This document shows, piece by piece, positions 5,228 to 20,027 of a DNA stretch of 64,000 nucleotides (its first letter is position 1; every line of letters begins with the position of its first letter). The notes under the pieces are model-generated. The model did not search any database. It had not been told where the DNA came from and was given only the letters and a program-made list of their open reading frames with translations. Source of the DNA: an uncultured Gemmatimonadales bacterium (GTDB lineage Bacteria > Gemmatimonadota > Gemmatimonadetes > Gemmatimonadales > GWC2-71-9); contig CAWJMT010000005.1 in the NCBI GenBank assembly GCA_963844035.1, forward strand, positions 64,001 to 128,000, in the 5' to 3' direction. The translations under genes and the position numbers were made by a program.

Positions 5228-8022
5228 TCACAGCGTCCAGGTGACGCCCAGGCTGACCACTCGGCCCGTCGTATAGCGCAGCCGCATGACGGATCCCTGG
5301 ACCATTTGATACGGCGAGTCGAGCAGGTTCTTGCCGTCGAGTCGCATCGCCAGCTGCGGCGTGACGAGCACCTGCGATGAGAAATCGACGACGTGCCGGG
5401 GCTGGTCGTACGCGTCCGGCACCGGCTGTTGCCCGACCTCGGCGACCCGCCGCCCCACGACGTTGTACAGGCGCGGTGGCGCTGATGCGGCCCCCGCTGC
5501 TGGCGTACGACATGCCGAGGTTCACGACGTAGGGGGCCTGGCCCTGCATCGGGCGCTCCGAGCTGGTATTGCTCGAGATGCCCTCGTTGCCCGGCCGGAT
5601 CTGGCTGTGCATCAGCGTCGTGTTGGCGAACAGCGTGATTGGCGTGAGCGCATGGCGCGATCGCACGCAGGTTCTTGCGGACTTCCAGCTCGACACCGTA
5701 GTTCGAAGGCGCCGTCCGCGTTGACGAACTGCAGCGAGGACGTCCCCGTCGATCCCGACGATGACCTTCTCGATCGGTTGATCGAACGTTTTCGCAAACA
5801 CGCCGAGACTCACGACCTCGGCGGACGTGGGATACCACTCCCAGCGGACGTCGTAGTTCTGAATGAGCACGCGCTGCAGGGACGTGTCACCGGCGATGAT
5901 CAGCCCCTCGAACCCGTTTTGTGCGTAGCGGATGGGCGAGATCTCGCGGTATTCGGGCCGGGACAACGTCTGACTCGCCGACAACCGCAGGTTCTGCGAC
6001 GGCGTGAGCCGGTAGGTCAGCGCGGCTGCGGGGAGGAAGTCGAGGTACTCGTGCACCGGGTCTGTCTTGGTCCCTTGCGCATCCTGCGTGTGCAGCTCCA
6101 CGCGACTGTTCTCGGCACGCAGGCCGGTGATCACGCGGGTGCGCTCGCCGAGCGCGAACTCGAGCTGGACGTAGCCGGCGCCCAGGTGGTCGTTGGCGGT
6201 GTAGTAGCCACCGTTCGAGTTGAGGAGCAGCAACATCCGGCTGCTCGCGGCGTACGCGCCGTCGAAGATCGTCTCGGGCGCCTGGGCGCGCTCCTGATCG
6301 GAGAGGTCCAGGTTGTCGATCTCGAACGGGCGAGTTTCTTCCGTCCGGTCCACCGCGCGGTAGACGCCGCCGAGCTTGAGCGCGCTTCCGCGACCCGGCT
6401 CTCCCCAGGACAGCTTGTAATTCCCTGACAGCTCGAGTGCGCTTCTCGTGCAGGTCGCCGAACGTCCGTACCGCCGATCGGGATGCGCCCCACCACGCGA
6501 TCGGCTGCGACGTGCGCGCAATCGTATCGAGCGTGGCGGTATAGATGATCTCGGAACGGTCGGGCTCATAGCGCCGTACGGACGAGCTCGATACCGACCA
6601 GTCCACCATGTTCCGCGCGCCCAGATGGTGTTCCGCGTGGAGCTGGGTCGAGCGGACGTAGCGCTCCGTGAACGTCAGGCGCGTGATGTCGAGGCCCGGT
6701 AATTGCGAGAACTCTTCGGTCGTCCCGGCCAACCGGGTGGCCTGGTTGTCGGCGGTGCGACTGTACGTATTGTTGAGCCCGACCTTGGTGGAGCCGAGCT
6801 CGGCGGTGACGATTGAAAATCCCACCCCAGAGCACCCCCGCCGTCGCCGGTGGAGCCGTAGTAGGAGTTCAGGGGTCGCGCGCCGCCGTTGCCGTCGGCT
6901 ACAGCGACCGAATGCTGCTCGTCGGTACGCACGTCCTGGCTGGTCGAGTAGCTGAGCGATCCCAAGTAGCCCAGGGGGACGCTGCCGACCAGACCGCGAC
7001 CGCCGGCGGAGAGACCGAGTGAGCCGATGCCGGGACCCGCGGCGTTGCGGGCGGACCAGGCGTTCCGGAACGACCCGATGACCGCGTCCATTTCGGACCG
7101 GCTGAGTCCGGCCATGTCGGGTGGGCCGTGCAGCGGATCCGCCGGCGCGCGGAATCGCGCGCGCGCTGCCGGCGAACCCGAGCCATTCGGGGCCGACGGT
7201 CGGGGCGATCGGAATGTCCACCCGGGTCGCTCCCGTGTTCCCGCCGCCCGACATGGAAAACGTGAGCATCCTGCGGAGCGGGAACTCGCGCGTCTTGAGG
7301 TTCACCGACGCGCCGCTGAAATCCCCCGACTGGTCCGGCGTGAAGGTCTTGGACGTGGTGATCGACTCGAGCAGGCTCGATGGGAAGAGATCGAACGGCA
7401 CCACCTTGCGATCCGGCTCGGGGCTCGGGACGCGCGCGCCGTTCAGCGCCGTCGTGGTGTAGCGCTCGCCCAGTCCCCGCACGAAGACGTACTTGCCGTC
7501 CTCGACGCTCACGCCGGAGACACGCTGCACCGCCTCGCCCGCGTCGGAGTCGGGGCTCTTGCGGATCTGCTCTTCAGTTACCGCATTGGTGATCTGGTCG
7601 GCGTTGCGTTGCTCGTTCAGTGCGGAGCTCACCGAGCCGCGCTCCTGCTCGGCGGTCACCGTGACCGCCTCGAGCTCCACGGCCGCGCCCGCGAGCGTGA
7701 CGTCGAGCGTCGTCGTCTGACCGGCCACGACCGACACACCGGTGACGAACTTCGCTGCGCGTCCGATCGTGCGGGCGCTGATCGTGTAGATGCCCGGACG
7801 CACGTCGGCCAGGATGTACCGGCCGGACCAGTTGCTGATGACGGTGATCGTGGTGCCTTCGACGGTCACCTGGGCGCTGGGGATCCCGTCGCCCCGCTCC
7901 GCGTCGACGACGCGGCCGGCGATACGGCCGACCGCCGCGCTCGAGTCCTGCGCGTGAAGCGGTGACGTGATCGCAAGGAGGCCCAGCAGCAGGATTGGGG
8001 CTCGGAATGACGATGGTGACAT
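5228..8022 (-). CDS. TonB-dependent receptor with N-terminal carboxypeptidase-regulatory-like domain (frameshifted)
   Basis: Plug motifs QRVSGVSVEDGKYVFVRGLGERY and VPFDLFPS; barrel motif SQTLSRPEYRE...NYDVRWEWYP; C-terminal GRVVSLGVTWTL. Confidence 0.9.
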
Positions 8023-8070: not shown

Positions 8071-9214
8071 TCACGAGAGCGGTGGAAAGCGGTAACGGTT
8101 TGGTAACAGAGGCGACGCGCGGACGGCTCGCGCGCGTAGCGGCGGGGCTACGCTCGGTCGGAGCGGACGGCCTGACGCGGTGCTGAGCAGCAGCGGTGCG
8201 GCGGGGCGGGCCAGGGCGGCAGCCAGGCTCACGACCCCGGCTTGCAGCTCGGCCTGCGATTCGCGCTGCCGCTCTTCTCCGAACGCGCTGAACGCGTCTT
8301 GCTGCGCTTGTTGCGCGAGCCGCGCGAGGGCGAGCACGCCGGTGGTCGCCGCGAGCGGCCGCTTCCGCGAGGCGGGCGCGCGCCGGGGCGCGCGGGCGAT
8401 GGTGAGATCGTGCTGCCGCCGCGCCCGCTCTGCTGCGGCGTCGGCCACGGCATCGGCCAGCTCCGCGCTCAAGACCTGGAGATCGTGCAGGTCGCCGAGC
8501 TGCGTCTGGATCGCCTTCAACCGGATCAGGAGGGCGGCCGCTCCCGGGTGGGCCTCCGCGAGCGGCTCCAGCAGGTAGCGCAGGTGCTTGGCGACGAGGC
8601 GGATCCCGTGAGCGGTCGATTCGTCGCCCGCGGACTGGAGCGTGGAGATCTCCTGGGCCAGCAGGGCGGCCTGCTCCGTCAGCAGGCCGGCGGCGACCGC
8701 ACCGAAGGTTGGGACGACGCTCGCCGAGCCCGCCGGAATGTTGCCGGCGGCCCGCAGCGCCTTCCGCAGCCGGCGCTCGAGGCGTTGAAACTCCGATGCG
8801 AGCTCGTCCTGGATCTGTTCGTACGCACGGTCGCGGCGTTCGGCGAGTCGCGCCAGCAACCATGGGACGCCCGCGCGCTGGCCGCGCTCCTAACCTCCCC
8901 TCCAGCGTTTTCACCGCAGCGATCAGGACCTCGGCGTCGCGTCCCGCCGCCGTGGCGCGCGTCAGGTCGCGTAGACGATTGCGCAACTTCCTGGGAACGG
9001 CGTGATCGAGCTCGGAGCGGAAGCTGCGCAACGTGCTGCGCAGGCGGCGGACGGCGACCCGGAAATCGTGCAGTGCCTCCGTGTCGCTCGGGTCCGCGAC
9101 GCGTTGCGCCGCGGTATGCGCGGCGTCGACGTGCACCTGACAAACGAGCGCGGCCGCCTCCGGGGCGGAGCGCGTGGTAAGGTCAGCCGGGTACTCAGCC
9201 ACGATCGGCACCAA
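8071..9214 (-). CDS. CHAD-domain (polyphosphate-binding) protein (frameshift ~8880)
   Basis: EALHDFRVAVRRLRS, RDAEV, HGIRLVAKHLRY and QTQLGDLHD motifs. Confidence 0.85.
8091..8107 (-). promoter_or_regulatory. Candidate Pho box (GTTACC-aaacc-GTTACC)
   Basis: Perfect 11-bp-period repeat upstream of the TonB receptor. Confidence 0.75.
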
Positions 9215-11900: not shown

Positions 11901-13532
11901 CTAGCGCTTCCGCTTGGCGCGCGGCCATGAGAGCGACACCTGGGTCTCGAACGCCTTCTCGAACAGACCCGCCTTCCGCCTCGCGTCCTCCAGCTCGATG
12001 AGCGGGTCGTGCGCCGCGGTGACCAGAATCCGCATCCATCCGTCGCCAACCCGGCAGCGCACTCCCGCGACGACCTGGCCGTGGGCCCGGTCGAGGCCGT
12101 CCGCGACCCGCAGGATTCCCGCGAGGCGCCGCACGAGACGACGCTCGCCCTTTTCGAGTCCGGCGAAGTTGGCGTGCGCCTTCTTCGGAACCGCGCGCCG
12201 GTGATAGCGGGCGACGTTGGCGATCAGCTCGACTTCCCGCTTCGAAAACCCCCGCAGGTCCGCGTGCATGATCAGGTGGTATGCGTGCTTGTGATGCTCC
12301 TCGTGGTTGATGAGGTAGCCGATGTCGTGCAACAGGGCCGCCGCGCGCAGGATGTCGCGACCGTTCGGCGGCAGCGCGTACGCGTCGCGCAGCGCGTCGA
12401 ACATCTCGGCGGCCAGGGCGGCGACGTGCTCGCAATGACGTTCGTTGGAGCGGCACTTGCGGGCGAACCGGCGCACCGCTTCGAGGCGGTCCGGCTGCAG
12501 GTCCTTCGCCGGCGCCGGGGTGCCGCCCCGCTCGTCGATCATCGACAGCAGCACGCCGTCCCGCACACCGCGGTCATTCACCATCACCCGTTGCGTGCCG
12601 AGCCACTTGGTCAGACGGGAGACGACGGCGACCCCCGCCAAGATGATGTCGGCTCGCGCAGGGTTGAGGCCTGGTATCCGGCGCCGGGCGTCGAGCGGCG
12701 TCTCCCGCAGCCGGTCGAGCGTGCGCTTGACCTCGGCGCGGCTGAGCGCGTAGTCCCGGGCGTTCGTCACCTTGCCGTCCCGCTCCGCCTGTGCCATCTC
12801 GGCCAGATTGGTAAACGTCCCGCCGCTCCCGATCATCAATGGGGCGGCGAACGGCGGCTTCCCGATCGCGTCCTTGATCGCCTGATCGATCGCGCGACGC
12901 AGCGCCTTCCAATGCTTGGGGCGGAGCGGGTCGGACTTCCCAAAGCGTTCCGTCAGCCGGACCGCGCCCAGCGGCAGCGAGACGACCTGCTCCACCAGGC
13001 CGCCGGCGGCAAGGACGACTTCGGCGCTGCCGCCACCGATGTCGACGATGGCGGTCAGGCGATCGTCGAGATCGTAGTGGCGGGTCACGCTCCGGAAGGC
13101 GAGCCGCGCCTCCTCCTCGGCCGGGACCACTTCGATGCGCAGGCGATGACGCCGCCAGGCTTCACGCACGAAGTCGCGCCCATTCGATGCCTCGCGCACG
13201 GCGCTCGTCGCGATCGCCCGCAGCTCGGCCACGCCGAACCCGTCGGCGATCGCTTTCATCTTGCCGAGCGCCTGCAGCGACTGTTCCATCGGCCCTTCAC
13301 CAAGGTGGCCGCTGCTGTATAATCCGCGGCCGAGGCGCGTCATCTCGCGGTCCTCATCGAGCAGGCGGTAGCTCCCATCGGCATCGACCTCGACCACGGC
13401 GAGACGAATCGAGTTCGTGCCGATGTCGATCGCGGCCAAGCGGGGGAGCGGTGGCTGCCCGCCGGGCGCTGGGGGCGGGGCGGCGCTGGCCTTGGCCACG
13501 CTTGCGGGTGCTGCCGTCGGGGCGATCACCAT
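11901..13532 (-). CDS. ppx: Ppx/GppA exopolyphosphatase with HD domain
   Basis: AIDIGTNS, ATSAVREA, DIGGGSAE and LLHDIG motifs. Confidence 0.93.
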   Translation of the reverse strand: MVIAPTAAPASVAKASAAPPPAPGGQPPLPRLAAIDIGTNSIRLAVVEVDADGSYRLLDEDREMTRLGRGLYSSGHLGEGPMEQSLQALGKMKAIADGFGVAELRAIATSAVREASNGRDFVREAWRRHRLRIEVVPAEEEARLAFRSVTRHYDLDDRLTAIVDIGGGSAEVVLAAGGLVEQVVSLPLGAVRLTERFGKSDPLRPKHWKALRRAIDQAIKDAIGKPPFAAPLMIGSGGTFTNLAEMAQAERDGKVTNARDYALSRAEVKRTLDRLRETPLDARRRIPGLNPARADIILAGVAVVSRLTKWLGTQRVMVNDRGVRDGVLLSMIDERGGTPAPAKDLQPDRLEAVRRFARKCRSNERHCEHVAALAAEMFDALRDAYALPPNGRDILRAAALLHDIGYLINHEEHHKHAYHLIMHADLRGFSKREVELIANVARYHRRAVPKKAHANFAGLEKGERRLVRRLAGILRVADGLDRAHGQVVAGVRCRVGDGWMRILVTAAHDPLIELEDARRKAGLFEKAFETQVSLSWPRAKRKR

Positions 13533-13593
13533 GGAGATACCGGGTGCAGGTGAGTGGTCGAGCGTGAGTTGCTTTAGAATCTACACCATGTTA

Positions 13594-13610
13594 CGTAACG
13601 ACCGGGCAAC
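13594..13610 (-). promoter_or_regulatory. Candidate Pho box (GTTGCC-cggtc-GTTACG) in the divergent ppx/ppk2 gap
   Basis: 11-bp-period repeat with a TAGATT -10-like hexamer downstream on the minus strand. Confidence 0.5.
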
Positions 13611-13703
13611 GGCTATGTCTCGGTGTAAGCTCATGCGCCGCCGCGAGATGCGCGGCATGCGTCGTGCGGCGTTCGCCCCGCACTCAGGCTGGAGGGTCAC
13701 GCG

Positions 13704-14513
13704 ATGACGCTGCGCGAGCGGCTGCTGGTCGAGCCGGGGAAGGCGGTGATGCTCGCCGACTGGGACCCGGCGGACAAGCTCGGGTTCACGAAGGACGACG
13801 AGCACAAGGTCGCCCTGGCGGAGGACATCGAGCGCCTGGATGAACTCCAGTACCTGATGTATGCGGAGGACCGGCACGCGCTGTTGATCGTGCTCCAGGG
13901 AATGGATGCCTCGGGGAAGGACGGCACGATCCGGCACGCGATGTCGGCGTTCAATCCGCAGGGGTGCCGGGTGACTGCCTTCAAGACTCCAACCCCTGAA
14001 GAGTTACAGCACGACTTCCTGTGGCGCGTTCATCGCGCCGTGCCTGGCCGGGGCGACATTGCGATCTTCAATCGGTCGCACTACGAAGACGTGCTGGTCG
14101 CCAGGGTCCGCAAGCTCGTCTCGAAGGACGTGTGGTCGAGCCGCTACGGGCAGATCAACCAGTTCGAAGAGCTGCTGCGAGACAACGGAGTTACCATCGT
14201 GAAGCTCTTCCTGCACATCAGCAAAGAGGAGCAGAAGGCGCGTTTCGAAGAGCGGCTCAAGGACCCGACCAAGCAGTGGAAGGTCGCACCGGGCGATTTC
14301 GAGGACCGGAAGCATTGGGACGACTACCTCACGGCCTACGAGGACGCACTCACTCGTTGCAGCACCGATGCCGCACCGTGGTACATCATCCCGGCGGACC
14401 GGAAGTGGGTCCGCAACCTTGTCGTATCGCGCCTGCTCATAGAGATCCTCGAGGCGCTCGAGATGAAATTCCCCAAGCCGGCGTTCGACCTGTCCGACCT
14501 GAAGATCGAGTAG
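13704..14513 (+). CDS. ppk2: Polyphosphate kinase 2 family (class III-like)
   Basis: LQGMDASGKDG Walker A, HDFLWR and FNRSHYEDVL motifs. Confidence 0.93.
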   Translation: MTLRERLLVEPGKAVMLADWDPADKLGFTKDDEHKVALAEDIERLDELQYLMYAEDRHALLIVLQGMDASGKDGTIRHAMSAFNPQGCRVTAFKTPTPEELQHDFLWRVHRAVPGRGDIAIFNRSHYEDVLVARVRKLVSKDVWSSRYGQINQFEELLRDNGVTIVKLFLHISKEEQKARFEERLKDPTKQWKVAPGDFEDRKHWDDYLTAYEDALTRCSTDAAPWYIIPADRKWVRNLVVSRLLIEILEALEMKFPKPAFDLSDLKIE

Positions 14514-14524
14514 CGTGACCGGCT

Positions 14525-14986
14525 TCAGGTATCGGGGGTCAACGGCACCTGCTCCGCCGGGACCCCGGACGGAGAGAACCGGACCGCCAGGACTCGCACG
14601 CCGGCCAGGCCCCCGATAACGACGAGCAGCAACGCAAACGATTTCCAGTCGCCGCCGCGCAGCCACAACGAGATGATTTCGGTCAGCATCACCACCAGGA
14701 TCGTGTCCACGATGAACGTCACCCGCACGCGTCCCTCGGCGAGGTAGGCGAGGGTGGCCTTGAAGACTTCGACCACGGCCAGCAGGATCAGGATCCCGAT
14801 CAACACGTGCCGCAGCACCAGCTCCACGTCCTCGACGAACAGGCGTCGCAGCTCCCACCCCACGGCGAGAATCCCGCCCACCAGAGTCGCCAGAATCAGC
14901 AGTAACAGCCCGCTCAGGACGGCGCGAATGAACCAGACGAACGGTCGCGCGCGCATGTAGACTGCGGCTTGTTCGAGGTCATCCAT
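14525..14986 (-). CDS. Phosphate-starvation-inducible PsiE-family membrane protein
   Basis: Four TM helices; VEVFKATLAY...RVRVTFIVD pattern; Pho context. Confidence 0.7.
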   Translation of the reverse strand: MDDLEQAAVYMRARPFVWFIRAVLSGLLLLILATLVGGILAVGWELRRLFVEDVELVLRHVLIGILILLAVVEVFKATLAYLAEGRVRVTFIVDTILVVMLTEIISLWLRGGDWKSFALLLVVIGGLAGVRVLAVRFSPSGVPAEQVPLTPDT

Positions 14987-15095
14987 TAGGTGTCAGGTGT
15001 TAGGTGCTAGGTGTCAGGTGGGAAACTCTGCAGGGTGGGTGCGGGGTGCTGGGCGTCATTACCTGACACCTCACACCTGGCACCTAGCACCTGCC
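14987..15095. repeat. Inverted array of degenerate heptamers (YAGGTGY x5 / reverse complement x5)
   Basis: taggtgt caggtgt taggtgc taggtgt caggtgg ... acctgac acctcac acctggc acctagc acctgcc. Confidence 0.9.
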
Positions 15096-15096
15096 C

Positions 15097-15528
15097 TTAT
15101 CCCAGCAACCGCGTCGCCACGATTGCGCCTGCCACGCCAAGCAGCACGCCGGCGAGCACGTCGCTCACGTGGTGAACCCGCAGGCGCACGCGCGAGTAGG
15201 CGACGAGTCCGGCGAGCGGCAGAACGAGGGCCGCGTAGATCGGCTCCGCGAGCACTACGCTGCCTGCGACCGCTGTCGCTGCCGCGGCGTGGCCCGAGGG
15301 GAACGAGAAGGGGTCGGGGAGATCGACCAGCGCGAGTGGCCGCCCGAAGGGGTCGCACGGGCGGGTACGCACCACCGTGCGCTTGAGTACCTGCACCGCG
15401 GCGTGCGACATCACGTTCGCGAGCAGGACGGTGAGTCCCAACCGCGCCGTGTTGCCGCCGAACAGCAGCAGCACGATCCCCGCAGCGACGGTCGCGCGCG
15501 CACCGCCGAGATGAGTGATCCAGCGCAT
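15097..15528 (-). CDS. PAP2-family membrane phosphatase
   Basis: KRTVVRTRP, SFPSGH and SRVRLRVHHVSDV motifs; ATGA overlap with the upstream gene. Confidence 0.9.
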   Translation of the reverse strand: MRWITHLGGARATVAAGIVLLLFGGNTARLGLTVLLANVMSHAAVQVLKRTVVRTRPCDPFGRPLALVDLPDPFSFPSGHAAAATAVAGSVVLAEPIYAALVLPLAGLVAYSRVRLRVHHVSDVLAGVLLGVAGAIVATRLLG

Positions 15529-16352
15529 CAGACGGCCACCATCTCGGCCGGAGCGCGGTGGAACGCTCCGGTGAGCGGGCGCCCTTCGTAACAGCTCGGG
15601 ATCTCCATCCCAAACCACCACAGGATCGTCGCGGGCAAGTCGAGCAGGGACACCGAGTGCGTCAGCTGGTGGCGGCGCATCACGCCCGGACCCGCGAGCA
15701 CCAGCGGGATATGATCGTTCACGGGGTGCGGCTCGTCGTGCTCGTGCGACTGAACGCCGCCGCCTCCGTGATCTGCGGTGACGATGAACGTCACCTCGTC
15801 GGTCCACTCGGAGAGAATGCCGATCGCGCTATCCACTTCCGCCGCGGCCTCGAGGTACGGCTCCGACATCCAGCCATGCGCGTGACCGGCGCGATCGCAG
15901 TCGGGCAGGTACAGAAACAGCAGGCGCGTTCCGGGCTCGGCGAGCAGTTCCCCCGCGGCCGCCGCCGTCTCGCGGGCACGCTGGCCCGATGCGATCAGCC
16001 GCCGCGCGCCGGCCGTGGTGGCCAGCGCCCACGCCACCGGGTGGACCGCGCGCCCGAGCTCGGTGGTGACGATGTCCACCGGAATGCCGCCCGTGGTCAA
16101 CTCGCGAGCGACCGGACGCAGCGTTCGCAGGCGTGGCAGGAAGCGCAGGCCGGGCTCGATCAGCCGGTGCGTCTCGGGCGCGACGCCGGTGGCGAGCGAG
16201 GCCAGCGCGGCGACAGTAGCGCTGGGCCGCACGGTGTGCGCCCGCGGGGCGTGGGTGAAGGCCCGACCCATTGCGTCGAGCGAGGGCATCACGCTCGGCG
16301 ACACCGCGTCGGGCCGGAGCCCGTCGGCGAGCACGAACACTAGGCGGCGCAT
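15528..16352 (-). CDS. Alkaline-phosphatase-superfamily (nucleotide pyrophosphatase/phosphodiesterase-like) enzyme, no signal peptide
   Basis: VLADGLRPD, PSATV, DCDRAGH and TADHGG motifs. Confidence 0.8.
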   Translation of the reverse strand: MRRLVFVLADGLRPDAVSPSVMPSLDAMGRAFTHAPRAHTVRPSATVAALASLATGVAPETHRLIEPGLRFLPRLRTLRPVARELTTGGIPVDIVTTELGRAVHPVAWALATTAGARRLIASGQRARETAAAAGELLAEPGTRLLFLYLPDCDRAGHAHGWMSEPYLEAAAEVDSAIGILSEWTDEVTFIVTADHGGGGVQSHEHDEPHPVNDHIPLVLAGPGVMRRHQLTHSVSLLDLPATILWWFGMEIPSCYEGRPLTGAFHRAPAEMVAV

Positions 16353-17502
16353 GCGGTCACCTGCTTCCCATTCCCATGCACCAGGCCCGCGTACTGCGCG
16401 AGGAGCCGGGCGTCTTCGTGCTCGCTGTCGCGCTGGAGCACCCATTCCCGTGCCGCCGCGGCGAGCGCGAAGCGGCGTCCGGAGTCGAGCACGAGGGCTT
16501 CGATCCCGGCCGCGAACGCCTGAGCGTCGTGCGGCGCCACCAGCAGACCGGTCCGCTCGTGATCGACGCTTTCGCGCAACCCGCCGGCATCGGCGGCGAT
16601 CACCGGGAGCCCGGAGGCCATCGCCTCGAGGGCGACGAGGCCACAGGTCTCGGTGTACGACGGGAGCACGCACAGGTCGCAGCTCGCGTACAGGGTGGCG
16701 AGCGTGGTGCGCGGCAGGAACCCGAGCTGGCGGACGAACGGCAGCTCGGTGAAGATCCGCGGTGCGAGCGGACCCTCGCCCGCGATGACGAACGTGGCGC
16801 GCTGTCCCAGGCGCTCGCGCGCCAGCTTCCATGCCGCGATCAAGAACCTCCAGGTTTTTCTCCGGGGCGAGCCGTCCGACGTGCAGGACGATCGCGCTGT
16901 CGTCGCCCCCCGCCATCCAGCGGCGCCATCCCGCCTCGCGCCGCGAGGGGTGAAACTGTTTGGAGTCGACTCCTTGCCCCCACACGTGCGCCTGGCTCAA
17001 GCCGTGGCGGTGCAGCTCATCGCGAGTCCCGTCTCCGGGTGTGAGCGTGAGGCGGGCCGCGCCGTGGAACCAGGCGAGCCAGCGCCACACGAGCGGCGCC
17101 AGCGCGGGCACTCCGTAGTGACGCGCGTAGCGTGGAAAGTCGGTGTGAAACGACGTGACCAGCGGGAGACCGCGCCGCAAGGCGAACCGCCGGCCGGCGA
17201 GGCCGAGCGGCCCTTCCGTGTGCACGTGCACCAGCTCGGGCCCGAAGTCGTCGAGGAATCGCGCCACGGCGCCGAAGGCGGGCAGGGACAAACGGATGGC
17301 CGGATATGGCGGGAAGGGAACCGACGCCACCCGCAGCTCGTGGGTAATGGGGCGGTCGTTCGCGATCGGGGTACCGCGGTGCAACGATCGCAACATCGTG
17401 CCCGGCTTCGCCCAGCATGTCGGCGATGCGCCCCACGATCGTGCTCACCCCGTTCACCTGGGGCGCGTAGGTATCGGAGACTAGCCCAATCCGCACGCCC
17501 AT
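16340..17502 (-). CDS. GT4 glycosyltransferase, glycolipid-synthase-like (frameshifted)
   Basis: SDTYAPQVNGV, SFHTDFPRY, VGRLAPEKN and ETCGLVALEAMASGLPV motifs. Confidence 0.85.
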
Positions 17503-17539
17503 ACGATCGGGCGGGACCGTCAATACCTCGCGACGGGGG

Positions 17540-17556
17540 GGTGACGGGTTTGTAAC
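17540..17556 (-). promoter_or_regulatory. Candidate Pho box (GTTACA-aaccc-GTCACC)
   Basis: 11-bp-period repeat 38 bp upstream of the GT4 start. Confidence 0.7.
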
Positions 17557-17577
17557 AACCGGCAAGTGCAGCCGGGA

Positions 17578-19305
17578 TCAGCGGTTGGACGGCTCTCCGG
17601 GGAAATGCAACTGGATCGTCGTACCGCGCCCCAGGGTGCTCTCCGCGGTGACGCGGCCCCCGTGCGCTTCCATGAGGTGTTTCACGATCGCGAGCCCCAG
17701 GCCCGTTCCGCCTTGCGCCCGGGAGCGACCCGCGTCGGCCCGATAGAACCGCTCGAAGATGCGGGGCAGGTGCTGCGGTGCGATGCCGGATCCGGTGTCC
17801 GCCACGGCGATCGTGACGCCGTCCGGGGCGGCGGCGGCCCGCACCGCGATCTCGCCGCCCGACGGCGTGTGGCGGAGCGCGTTGTCGAACAGGTTCGTGA
17901 GTATCTGCCGCAACGCGTCCGGGTCCGCCGCCACTGCGGCCGCATCCGGCGCGATCTCGACGGTGAAGCGCATGTCGCGGGCGCGCGCGCGGTCGCTGAA
18001 GGGCGTCCACGCCTCCTGCGCGAGCGCGGCGACATCGACCACGCGCTGCACCGGCTGCCAGCCGCCCGACTCGATGCGAGAGAGGTCGAGGAGATCGTCC
18101 ACCAGGCGCTGCATGCGTTGCGCGTTGCTGAGGATGGTATCGGCGAATTTCCTGGCGCGCTCCTTGTCGGGCTCCTCGGTCGCGAGGGTTTCCGCGTAGC
18201 CGGCGATGGAAGTGAGCGGCGTCTTGAGCTCGTGCGACACGTTGGCGACAAAATCGCGCCGGACGGCCTCGAGGCGGCGCAGCGCCGTGACGTCGCGGAA
18301 CATGAGCAGCGTGCCGCCGTTCGGGAGCGAGCGGCTGGTGACGAGCAGCGCACGGCCTTCGAGGTCGAGCTCCTGCTGGTCGAATTCGCGTCCGCCGAGT
18401 GCCGCGCGCACCAGCTCGCGGGCGCGCTTTTCGTGGAACAGCTCGGTGACTGGTGGAAGCGGCTCGGCAGGCCGGCGGACGAGGAGACGGCGGGCGGCGG
18501 TGTTGACGGTGGCGACGTTGCCCGCGGCGTCGGTGGCGAGCAGGCCATCCGCCATCGATTCGATCAACGTGTGCGTCTCTTCGCGCTCGCGCTGCAGCTC
18601 GGTAAAGCGCTGCAGCAACTGCTCGTGCATGTCGTGCAGCGCCTGGGCGTGCGCGGCGATTTCGGGGATCCGCGATTCGGGGAACACGGGTGACCCACCC
18701 GCCGCGATGGCGCGCGCGGCGTCGCCCAACCGCACGACATTCCGCGCCACGGCACGGCTCAGGATCAACGCGAGCAGCGCCGCCACGCTCAGCGCGGTGA
18801 GCCCGGCGAACAGCACGCCGCGCTGCACCGCGCCCACCGTCCGGTCGACCGCGACGAGGGTGGTCGACAGGCGCACGACCGCGAGGCCCCGCGGGCCACC
18901 CCGCACGGCGAGGTACATGCGGTTCTCATTCGTGGACGCGCTGAGCCGCTGGTCGCGACCCACCCCGGTTGCGATGGCTGCGCGTACTTCGGGACGGTCG
19001 GCGTGATTCTCGAGCCGCGTCAGGGCGGCGCGATCGAACTCGGTGTCGCCGCGCACGCGACCCTTGGGGTCGATCAGGGTGACGCGATGGCCCGACAGCC
19101 GTCCGAGCATGCGGGCCGCGTCGGGCCACGCGGAGGAATCGGCGGGCAGCAGGGCGGCGACGATGTGCGCCTCATGCTCGAGCCCGAGGGCAATCTCGGA
19201 TTCGAGGTTGCGGCGTAGCACCTGGTCCGCAGCGACGATCAGGCCGCCCACGGTGACGGCGAGGAGCAGGCCCGTGCCGACGTAGACACGGCCCGCGAGC
19301 GTCAC
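17578..19305 (-). CDS. phoR: PhoR-like sensor histidine kinase
   Basis: TM-periplasmic(ENHADRPE)-TM-HAMP-PAS; DFVANVSHELKTPL; RIFERFYRAD..RSR..GGTGLGL. Confidence 0.88.
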   Translation of the reverse strand: MTLAGRVYVGTGLLLAVTVGGLIVAADQVLRRNLESEIALGLEHEAHIVAALLPADSSAWPDAARMLGRLSGHRVTLIDPKGRVRGDTEFDRAALTRLENHADRPEVRAAIATGVGRDQRLSASTNENRMYLAVRGGPRGLAVVRLSTTLVAVDRTVGAVQRGVLFAGLTALSVAALLALILSRAVARNVVRLGDAARAIAAGGSPVFPESRIPEIAAHAQALHDMHEQLLQRFTELQREREETHTLIESMADGLLATDAAGNVATVNTAARRLLVRRPAEPLPPVTELFHEKRARELVRAALGGREFDQQELDLEGRALLVTSRSLPNGGTLLMFRDVTALRRLEAVRRDFVANVSHELKTPLTSIAGYAETLATEEPDKERARKFADTILSNAQRMQRLVDDLLDLSRIESGGWQPVQRVVDVAALAQEAWTPFSDRARARDMRFTVEIAPDAAAVAADPDALRQILTNLFDNALRHTPSGGEIAVRAAAAPDGVTIAVADTGSGIAPQHLPRIFERFYRADAGRSRAQGGTGLGLAIVKHLMEAHGGRVTAESTLGRGTTIQLHFPGEPSNR

Positions 19306-20027
19306 GCGCGCTTCCGGCCGGGGGTTGGAGCCTTGAACCGATACCCGGCGCCGCGCACCGTCTCGATCACGTCGCCGGCGGGTCCGAGCTTTTGGCGCAA
19401 GCGCTGCACGTGCATGTCCACGGTGCGGGTCTGGATGTCCGGCTGAGCCTGCCACACCGTCTCGAGCAGCTGCGCGCGGCTCTGCACCCGCCCCTGGCGC
19501 TCCATGAGCGTGCGCAGCAGCCGGAATTCGGTGGCGGTGAGCTCGATCTCGCGGCCGTTCACGGTTGCCTGGTGGGCGGTCTTGTCGAGCGCGATGGTGC
19601 CGGCGGCGAGCAGGCCTCCGGACGCGATGGCGGGTGCGGCGAGCCGCCGCAACACGGCGCCGACGCGCAGCACCAATTCGGGCGGCGAAAACGGCTTCGG
19701 CAGGTAGTCATCGGCGCCGAGCGACAGACCCTTGATGCGGTCGGGCTCGTCTTTGCGCGCGGTGAGCACGATGACGCCGATGTCCTTCGTCTCCTCCTGC
19801 CGGCGCAGCTCGGCCAGCACTTCGTACCCGGACAGGCCGGGGAGCATCAGGTCGAGGACGATCAGGTCGGGGCGCTCTTCCCGCGCGGCGCGCAGCGCGT
19901 CGCGACCGTTGGCGGCGGTGGTGACCCGGTAGCTCGCCTTGGCGAGGTGGTAGGCGACGAGTGCCGTAATGTCCGGCTCATCGTCCACCACGAGGATGCG
20001 CTGCCCGGCCGGCGGTGCGGAACTCAT
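19302..20027 (-). CDS. phoB: PhoB-like OmpR-family response regulator
   Basis: REC (LDLMLP) plus winged helix (TRTVDMHVQRLRQKL, IETVRGAGY); Pho context. Confidence 0.88.
   Translation of the reverse strand: MSSAPPAGQRILVVDDEPDITALVAYHLAKASYRVTTAANGRDALRAAREERPDLIVLDLMLPGLSGYEVLAELRRQEETKDIGVIVLTARKDEPDRIKGLSLGADDYLPKPFSPPELVLRVGAVLRRLAAPAIASGGLLAAGTIALDKTAHQATVNGREIELTATEFRLLRTLMERQGRVQSRAQLLETVWQAQPDIQTRTVDMHVQRLRQKLGPAGDVIETVRGAGYRFKAPTPGRKRA

Follow-up and report, generated by a model that had tools for sequence, protein, structure and literature searches.

The 64,000-nucleotide stretch of uncultured Gemmatimonadales DNA analysed here (the window) carries, directly after phoBR, an operon for a GT4 glycosyltransferase, a cytoplasmic alkaline-phosphatase-superfamily enzyme (AlkP) and a PAP2 phosphatase, in which GT4 and PAP2 form the core and AlkP is an add-on. 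From its sequence features, we propose that the operon serves Pho-induced synthesis of a phosphorus-free glycolipid by GT4 and PAP2, with AlkP recycling phospholipid, a reading to which, taken as a whole, we give even chances. In phosphate-starved cells, PhoB would induce the operon at a promoter of its own. PAP2 would convert phosphatidate to diacylglycerol (DAG) and free phosphate, and GT4 would add glucose or glucuronate to the DAG to give a glycolipid free of phosphorus. AlkP would act as a membrane-surface phosphodiesterase and, taking the part of PlcP, set DAG free from phospholipids already in the membrane. GT4 and PAP2 would thus constitute a de novo route and AlkP a recycling addition to it.

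Layout of the operon and its Pho-type promoter

The gene order on the minus strand is phoB, phoR, GT4, AlkP, PAP2, and the surrounding phosphate region holds ppk2, ppx, ppk1, CHAD, porin and pstSCAB-phoU genes. The features are as follows.

19302..20027, minus strand: phoB-type response regulator (TIGR02154, 258 bits against a cut-off of 296), context
17578..19305, minus strand: phoR-type sensor kinase (TIGR02966, 308 bits against a cut-off of 334), context
17519..17558, minus strand: four Pho-box-type half-sites with an 11-bp period (cores GTTAC 17556, GTCAC 17545, GTCGC 17534, TTGAC 17523)
17503..17508, minus strand: -10-like hexamer of putative function, its spacing conserved in the upstream regions of relatives
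16340..17496, minus strand: GT4 glycosyltransferase of the Agt/MgtA-like glycolipid-synthase group, GTG start, frame-broken in the assembly copy
15528..16352, minus strand: AlkP, a minimal cytoplasmic alkaline-phosphatase-superfamily enzyme with NPP fold (274 aa, Pfam Phosphodiest)
15097..15528, minus strand: PAP2 membrane lipid-phosphate phosphatase, short form (143 aa), all three motifs intact
14985..15096, no strand assigned: hairpin with arms of 7-mer repeats, 3' of PAP2 (about -49.6 kcal/mol)

The three genes and the upstream repeat thus lie after phoBR on the minus strand, as the initial annotation had them. Its description of the genes as joined by overlapping stop and start codons holds for the AlkP/PAP2 junction (TGATG) and fails for GT4 and AlkP, which instead overlap by 13 bases. 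An in-frame ATG at 17502 is an alternative to the GTG start of GT4. The hairpin is a possible transcript end and looks like a REP-type element; it is not specific to the operon, with 29 similar runs of 7-mer repeats across the genome, some of them as facing pairs. Both psiE (14525-14986) and ppk2 were considered as module members and rejected, as they adjoin the operon but are not conserved neighbours.

A Pho box upstream of GT4 had also been claimed, and the repeat in fact comprises four half-sites, an array shared by 42 of 45 co-oriented loci, where rows on the same strand were selected by a GTTAC located 55-72 bases before the GT4 start. The three rows without the array are apparently second GT4 copies 3' of PAP2. 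The GTTAC is followed by GT(A/C/G)AC at +11, GTCAC at +22 and TTGAC at +33, the last being in register in all 42 array rows without having been a selection criterion. In the window, the array scores 25.3 bits, whereas the best of 100 shuffles gives 12.6. At divergently arranged loci the array lies above all shuffles in 10 of 12 cases and is reached by 1 of 100 shuffles in the other two, and it also beats shuffles upstream of AlkP-GT28. The -10-like hexamer begins 10 bases past the last half-site, which we take to be the spacing of PhoB promoters, and the GTG start follows 6 bases further; the GT4 transcript is accordingly predicted to be leaderless.

Scanning the 3.47-Mb genome with a three-half-site matrix trained on the relatives gave five matches above the threshold of 17 bits. 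The operon site ranks first (25.3 bits, partly by homology). Second is a site of 20.7 bits between the divergent ppx and ppk2 (window 13532-13704), and the third, near position 1917 and scoring 17.9 bits, precedes the porin and pstS; the remaining two are sites without an assigned gene. PMC8528852 gives the Pho-box consensus and describes a Pho box before agt1 and agt2. By its promoter sequence, the operon is very probably under PhoB control.

The GT4-PAP2 core and its distribution

The affiliation of GT4 was assessed in a tree of 105 rows, computed by a quick method with no bootstrap, including 30 randomly sampled GT4s from AlkP loci and leaving out SqdX, true MgtA and Caulobacter Sgt1, with MgtA represented by an MgtA-like Tsukamurella gene. 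The window GT4 falls in a Gemmatimonadota subclade inside a 74-row set (SH-aLRT 92) that also holds Agt1 and Agt2 of Pseudomonas aeruginosa, recognised by their neighbours plcP and plcR, respectively, as well as rows that we take to be LafA-like and, for Tsukamurella by gene context, MgtA-like. This set stands apart from E. coli WcaC/I/L and WaaB/G and from the other GT4s of the same genome. As the earlier proposal of a DAG-glycosylating enzyme foresaw, GT4 therefore groups with Agt/MgtA-like glycolipid synthases and apart from LPS/EPS enzymes, while being neither sister to any characterised enzyme in the tree nor the exclusive sister of Agt.

Among the strongest annotated matches of GT4 is the gene in the Agt2 position of P. 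aeruginosa (36.5%, 1e-50); Agt1 matches at 1e-31. Agt2 is a proven DAG glucuronosyltransferase. Two NDP-sugar dehydrogenases are encoded in the source genome. Agt1 and Agt2 of P. aeruginosa make MGDG/GADG (PMC8528852), as do Agt homologs of Desulfovibrio (PMC5193443). The PhoB-regulated Sgt enzymes of Caulobacter use ceramide as acceptor (PMC6445935), and therefore regulation alone does not fix the acceptor of GT4. Judged from its affiliation, the product of the module is quite likely a glycosyl-DAG.

PAP2 belongs to its family with the motifs K-x6-RP, PSGH and SR-x5-H-x3-D intact. The colinear form does not have the approximately 28 N-terminal residues that 31 of 82 homologs have, and 43 of the 82 are short. 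Its closest solved relatives are LpxE (E 2e-6) and YodM/PgpB. PMC3599759 and PMC4796936 (section 16) state, respectively, that bacterial PAP2 enzymes such as Streptomyces Lpp-alpha/beta make DAG and that the only DAG sources are phosphatidate phosphatase and phospholipase C. PAP2 probably acts on phosphatidate, although the motifs of the family do not themselves reveal the substrate.

Neighbourhoods were compared over 2.5 kb for the best 80 of 269 confirmed AlkP loci, almost all of which are labelled Gemmatimonadales or Gemmatimonadota. Among these best 80, GT4 lies within range in 74, PAP2 in 72 and both in 69, so that the triplet is conserved, as had been supposed. A phoB/phoR-like gene is near AlkP in 62 of the 80, 39 are colinear as in the window and 28 have a divergent GT4, and the triplet occurs in at least three gene orders. 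As an obligate unit, the triplet does not stand. In a phylum sample of 161 genomes including our own, which are related and whose counts are therefore not independent, AlkP orthologs were found in 36 (35 above 250 bits and one partial, with 6 weaker matches dropped), the GT4 family in 79 and the PAP2 subfamily in 73 (one weak match dropped). Of the 36 genomes with AlkP, 31 have it close to both partners, and all 36 have the PAP2 subfamily. An adjacent GT4-PAP2 pair is present in 52 of the 161, 19 of them without AlkP. In one genome (G043), about 790 bases of AlkP are cleanly deleted in frame, leaving the last codons of AlkP on GT4. Adjacent GT4 and small PAP2 genes with similar motifs also occur in Bacillus mycoides, Acinetobacter baumannii and Ralstonia, and a search of a single record each for Bacillus and Acinetobacter found neither PlcP nor an AlkP ortholog. 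Since the pair stands without AlkP in the 19 genomes, in G043 and in these two records, GT4 and PAP2 are the core and AlkP is the add-on.

In three loci with no GT4 nearby, a GT28 glycosyltransferase adjoins AlkP, and in G126 one adjoins PAP2, at the following positions.

L109:5962-8087 and L115:5941-8060: AlkP with a UgtP/MGDG-synthase-like GT28 gene directly 3' of it
L114:5983-9344: AlkP followed by a second GT28, 27% identical to the L109/L115 type
G126:C37:13086-14890: PAP2 beside GT28

Six of the best 80 of 269 loci have no GT4 within 2.5 kb: GT28 is present in three, the contig stops short in one, another has GT4 at 3.9 kb and the last has no glycosyltransferase. No glycosyltransferase is near AlkP at L101, L180 and L181; an epimerase beside AlkP at L181, considered as SqdB, proved not to be SqdB. 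This GT28 family was matched in just 2 of 161 genomes, the PAP2 subfamily is present in all three AlkP-GT28 genomes, and G182, a genome of unstated completeness, has GT28, AlkP and PAP2 together with no GT4 match. AlkP is thus found with two different families of DAG glycosyltransferase, which bears out the proposed link between them (GT4 within 2.5 kb in 74 of the best 80 of 269 loci, GT28 in three GT4-less ones). This association fits DAG supply, but also the removal of UDP, the by-product common to both.

A GT4-AlkP fusion (P0003) was rejected as Rosetta-stone evidence, its junction being such as a +1 base at the usual overlap would produce and the argument weak. It shares a length of 702 aa with P0271 and P0272, the three being near-identical (698-700 of 702 residues alike), and the GT4 half of this fusion type belongs to a different subclade from the window GT4. 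A secreted-type Phosphoesterase (PF04185) is encoded near the triplet in 7 of the best 80 of 269 loci, including L045:7367-8761.

AlkP and alternative readings of the module

AlkP is a member of the NPP/alkaline-phosphatase superfamily, with bimetal ligands (D10, D153, H157, D194, H195, H205) and a Thr nucleophile (Thr46) on the alkaline-phosphatase fold; among 73 orthologs, conservation of Thr46 and the six ligands is 99-100%. The enzyme was described earlier as cytoplasmic, and it indeed has neither a signal peptide nor a transmembrane segment; the N-terminal extension is at most 21 residues in the 73 orthologs. The nearest folds to the AlkP model (pLDDT 95) are tied between Xac NPP (Z 28.4, rmsd 2.4, 251 aligned) and the alkaline sphingomyelinase ENPP7 (Z 27.7, rmsd 2.4, 253 aligned), with sulfatases ranking close behind; nucleotide phosphodiesterases as well as sulfatases share the fold, which does not point to a substrate. 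With the NPP family (Xac NPP, ENPP7, ENPP6, autotaxin), AlkP has in common the fold, the Thr nucleophile, the six ligands and a diester-pocket Tyr, but it differs in being a minimal core of 274 aa with no signal peptide, no TxPxH motif (0 of 73 orthologs) and no Asn111 equivalent. Compared to 108 outer relatives, the clade has gained the invariant D151 and H209, and a Lys common in these relatives (position 98) is mostly Glu/Asp.

The Asn111 equivalent is found in none of the 73 orthologs, against 80 of the 108 outer relatives. According to PMC3145672, a phosphoryl oxygen is contacted by this Asn in both NPP and SPAP; the SPAP/PafA-type active site is marked by the combination of Thr, Asn, Lys and Arg, and monoesterases of the fold by Lys/Arg. 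AlkP does not have this set: the Asn is missing, and position 98, mostly Glu/Asp, would correspond to SPAP Lys171 by an inferred mapping. The missing Asn counts against the main reading of AlkP. Residues 63-125 form a lid with a median net charge of +5, compared to +1 in the 108 outer relatives, and a higher hydrophobic moment, whereas in three control segments there is no gain in basic charge over those relatives; this basic amphipathic lid suggests a membrane surface. The outer cytoplasmic family showed no common neighbourhood theme (4 of 14 loci scanned), and four AlkP-like proteins (P0028, P0038, P0039, P0080) have lost several metal ligands and are possibly inactive paralogs.

On these sequence features, we lean slightly towards AlkP acting on membrane phospholipid. 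Cleavage of the phospholipase-C type is tentatively suggested and would rank first, closely rivalled by D-type cleavage and soluble scavenging. It is placed first because LtaS, EptA and MdoB, membrane enzymes of the superfamily with diacyl-lipid substrates, release DAG.

AlkP could instead be a soluble scavenger of UDP, glycerophosphodiesters or phospho-head groups, leaving GT4 and PAP2 to make the glycolipid de novo. The best match by both sequence and fold is a nucleotide pyrophosphatase, outer relatives P0130 and P0136 are fused to glycerophosphodiester phosphodiesterase domains, AlkP has no transmembrane segment, and UDP, released by GT4 and GT28 alike, would explain AlkP beside either family. 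However, the clade-specific lid suggests a membrane surface, and the change from Lys to mostly Glu/Asp would disfavour monoesters if the position is that of SPAP Lys171. We regard scavenging as rather unlikely.

An AlkP of the phospholipase-D type is unlikely; less likely again is the full series in which it would remove the head group and hand phosphatidate to PAP2, with the three enzymes acting in succession. Autotaxin, a lysophospholipase D, is among the sequence matches of AlkP, and the PAP2 subfamily accompanies AlkP in 36 of 36 genomes and in 3 of 3 AlkP-GT28 genomes, compared to 73 of 161 overall. This nesting is equally explained by AlkP as an add-on to a GT-PAP2 core and is inflated by kinship, and the release of DAG by LtaS, EptA and MdoB also speaks against D-type cleavage.

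The module might also spare phosphorus in lipid A/LPS or another envelope lipid, with an LpxE/F-like PAP2 and a GT4 acting on LPS or phosphatidylglycerol. Such a role would agree with LpxE as the closest solved relative of PAP2 and with the top NCBIfam match of GT4, the GlcNAc-PG synthase NF053787 (134-167 bits in 4 of 4 orthologs, below the cut-off of 480). But the DAG enzyme Agt2 has the same top match (135 bits against 480), the tree parts GT4 from the Waa/Wca enzymes, and the GT4-PAP2 pair occurs in Bacillus mycoides, an LPS-free organism, which together make this reading improbable.

GT4 itself is spread over three frames by +1 insertions near 17365 and at 16843-16847. In related contigs (runs X1-X3), the extra base is absent at both sites; these runs come from one study, with bridging pieces about 94-98% alike, while X4 spans neither site, and the reads compared are those of relatives of the source organism (best share of words 0.20). 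The GT4 frames of relatives are open in 15 of 15 cases, read from 14 loci, and a rough count puts frame-split genes at about 14 of the 67 bins of the same genome for which there is a close ortholog. Since relatives do not have the extra bases and other gene bins are split likewise, the breaks are probably assembly errors. A true pseudogene, with the module inactive in the source genome, would account for two frameshifts within GT4 but is scarcely credible, as both extra bases are missing in relatives, neither the promoter nor the partner genes are damaged, and the assembly has frameshifts throughout, including in the pst and TonB-receptor genes. The TonB-dependent receptor (window 5228-7900) and CHAD genes (8071-9214) have several frameshifts, as expected from indel errors over the whole assembly. 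A second gene set matching the pst/porin-region genes of relatives is located on another contig of the genome (G000:C16:1-6200), through either duplication or contamination.

Relation to PlcP-Agt and other known systems

The initial annotation proposed a PlcP-independent enzyme set, and this is supported by the near absence of plcP: a PlcP-like match occurs in 1 of 161 phylum genomes and in 1 of 41 genomes of a second sample, neither with an AlkP ortholog. In the source genome (84% complete), true PlcP was not found, the best candidate being a 29% LpxH-like match elsewhere, and the ornithine-lipid family PF13444 was not found either. In the two plcP genomes (G148 and G024), plcP lies beside a different glycosyltransferase, with PF13528 in G024. 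With plcP this rare in the phylum sample, the suggested anti-correlation between plcP and the triplet finds no support.

In known PlcP-Agt systems (P. aeruginosa PA3219/PA3218/PA0842, Phaeobacter MED193, SAR11, Agrobacterium Agt), as described in PMC8528852 and PMC4796936, the module finds its likeness in Pho-box control, the same broad GT4 group, and a predicted DAG acceptor and phosphorus-free product. It has the GT4 group and, by sequence conservation, the Pho box, but no PlcP gene beside agt: PAP2 and an NPP-fold enzyme take the place of the calcineurin-like PlcP, and GT4 is 33-37% identical to Agt1/Agt2. The module would work like PlcP-Agt but falls outside it for want of PlcP. It also resembles the phosphatidate-phosphatase route of Streptomyces Lpp-alpha/beta, proposed in cyanobacteria as well, with PAP2 as the proposed DAG source (PMC3599759, PMC4796936); in that route, DAG is used for triacylglycerol or constitutive glycolipids, whereas here PAP2 is coupled to GT4 and a Pho-type promoter. 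The pairs of Bacillus mycoides, Acinetobacter baumannii and Ralstonia have the same adjacency but differ by the missing AlkP ortholog, as searched in one Bacillus and one Acinetobacter record. In the part of the literature searched, no description was found of the triplet, of a Pho-regulated GT4-PAP2 pair or of lipid remodelling in Gemmatimonadota; a survey of the phylum (PMC10581226) lists pst, phoBR, phosphatases and ppk and, in its available text, mentions no remodelling.

At a little under even chances, AlkP would represent a new cytoplasmic NPP-fold phospholipase class and a non-homologous replacement of PlcP, providing with PAP2 and GT4/GT28 a second route by which membrane phosphorus is recycled independently of PlcP throughout a major soil phylum, which the GT4-PAP2 core would extend to plcP-lacking Bacillota and Proteobacteria. 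AlkP is in this sense a candidate new phospholipase family, and the module would offer a testable DAG source for bacteria making phosphorus-free glycolipids without PlcP. As plcP is the marker gene used for bacterial phospholipid-to-glycolipid remodelling, surveys based on it would, if the proposal is true, miss a whole abundant soil phylum (GT4-PAP2 pair in 52 of 161 genomes, plcP in 1 of 161).

Variant clusters of the order PAP2-GT4-DUF2334-GT4 are present at L165, L186, L118 and L192, lying behind phoBR in the first two, and suggest a second, deacetylase-dependent glycolipid.
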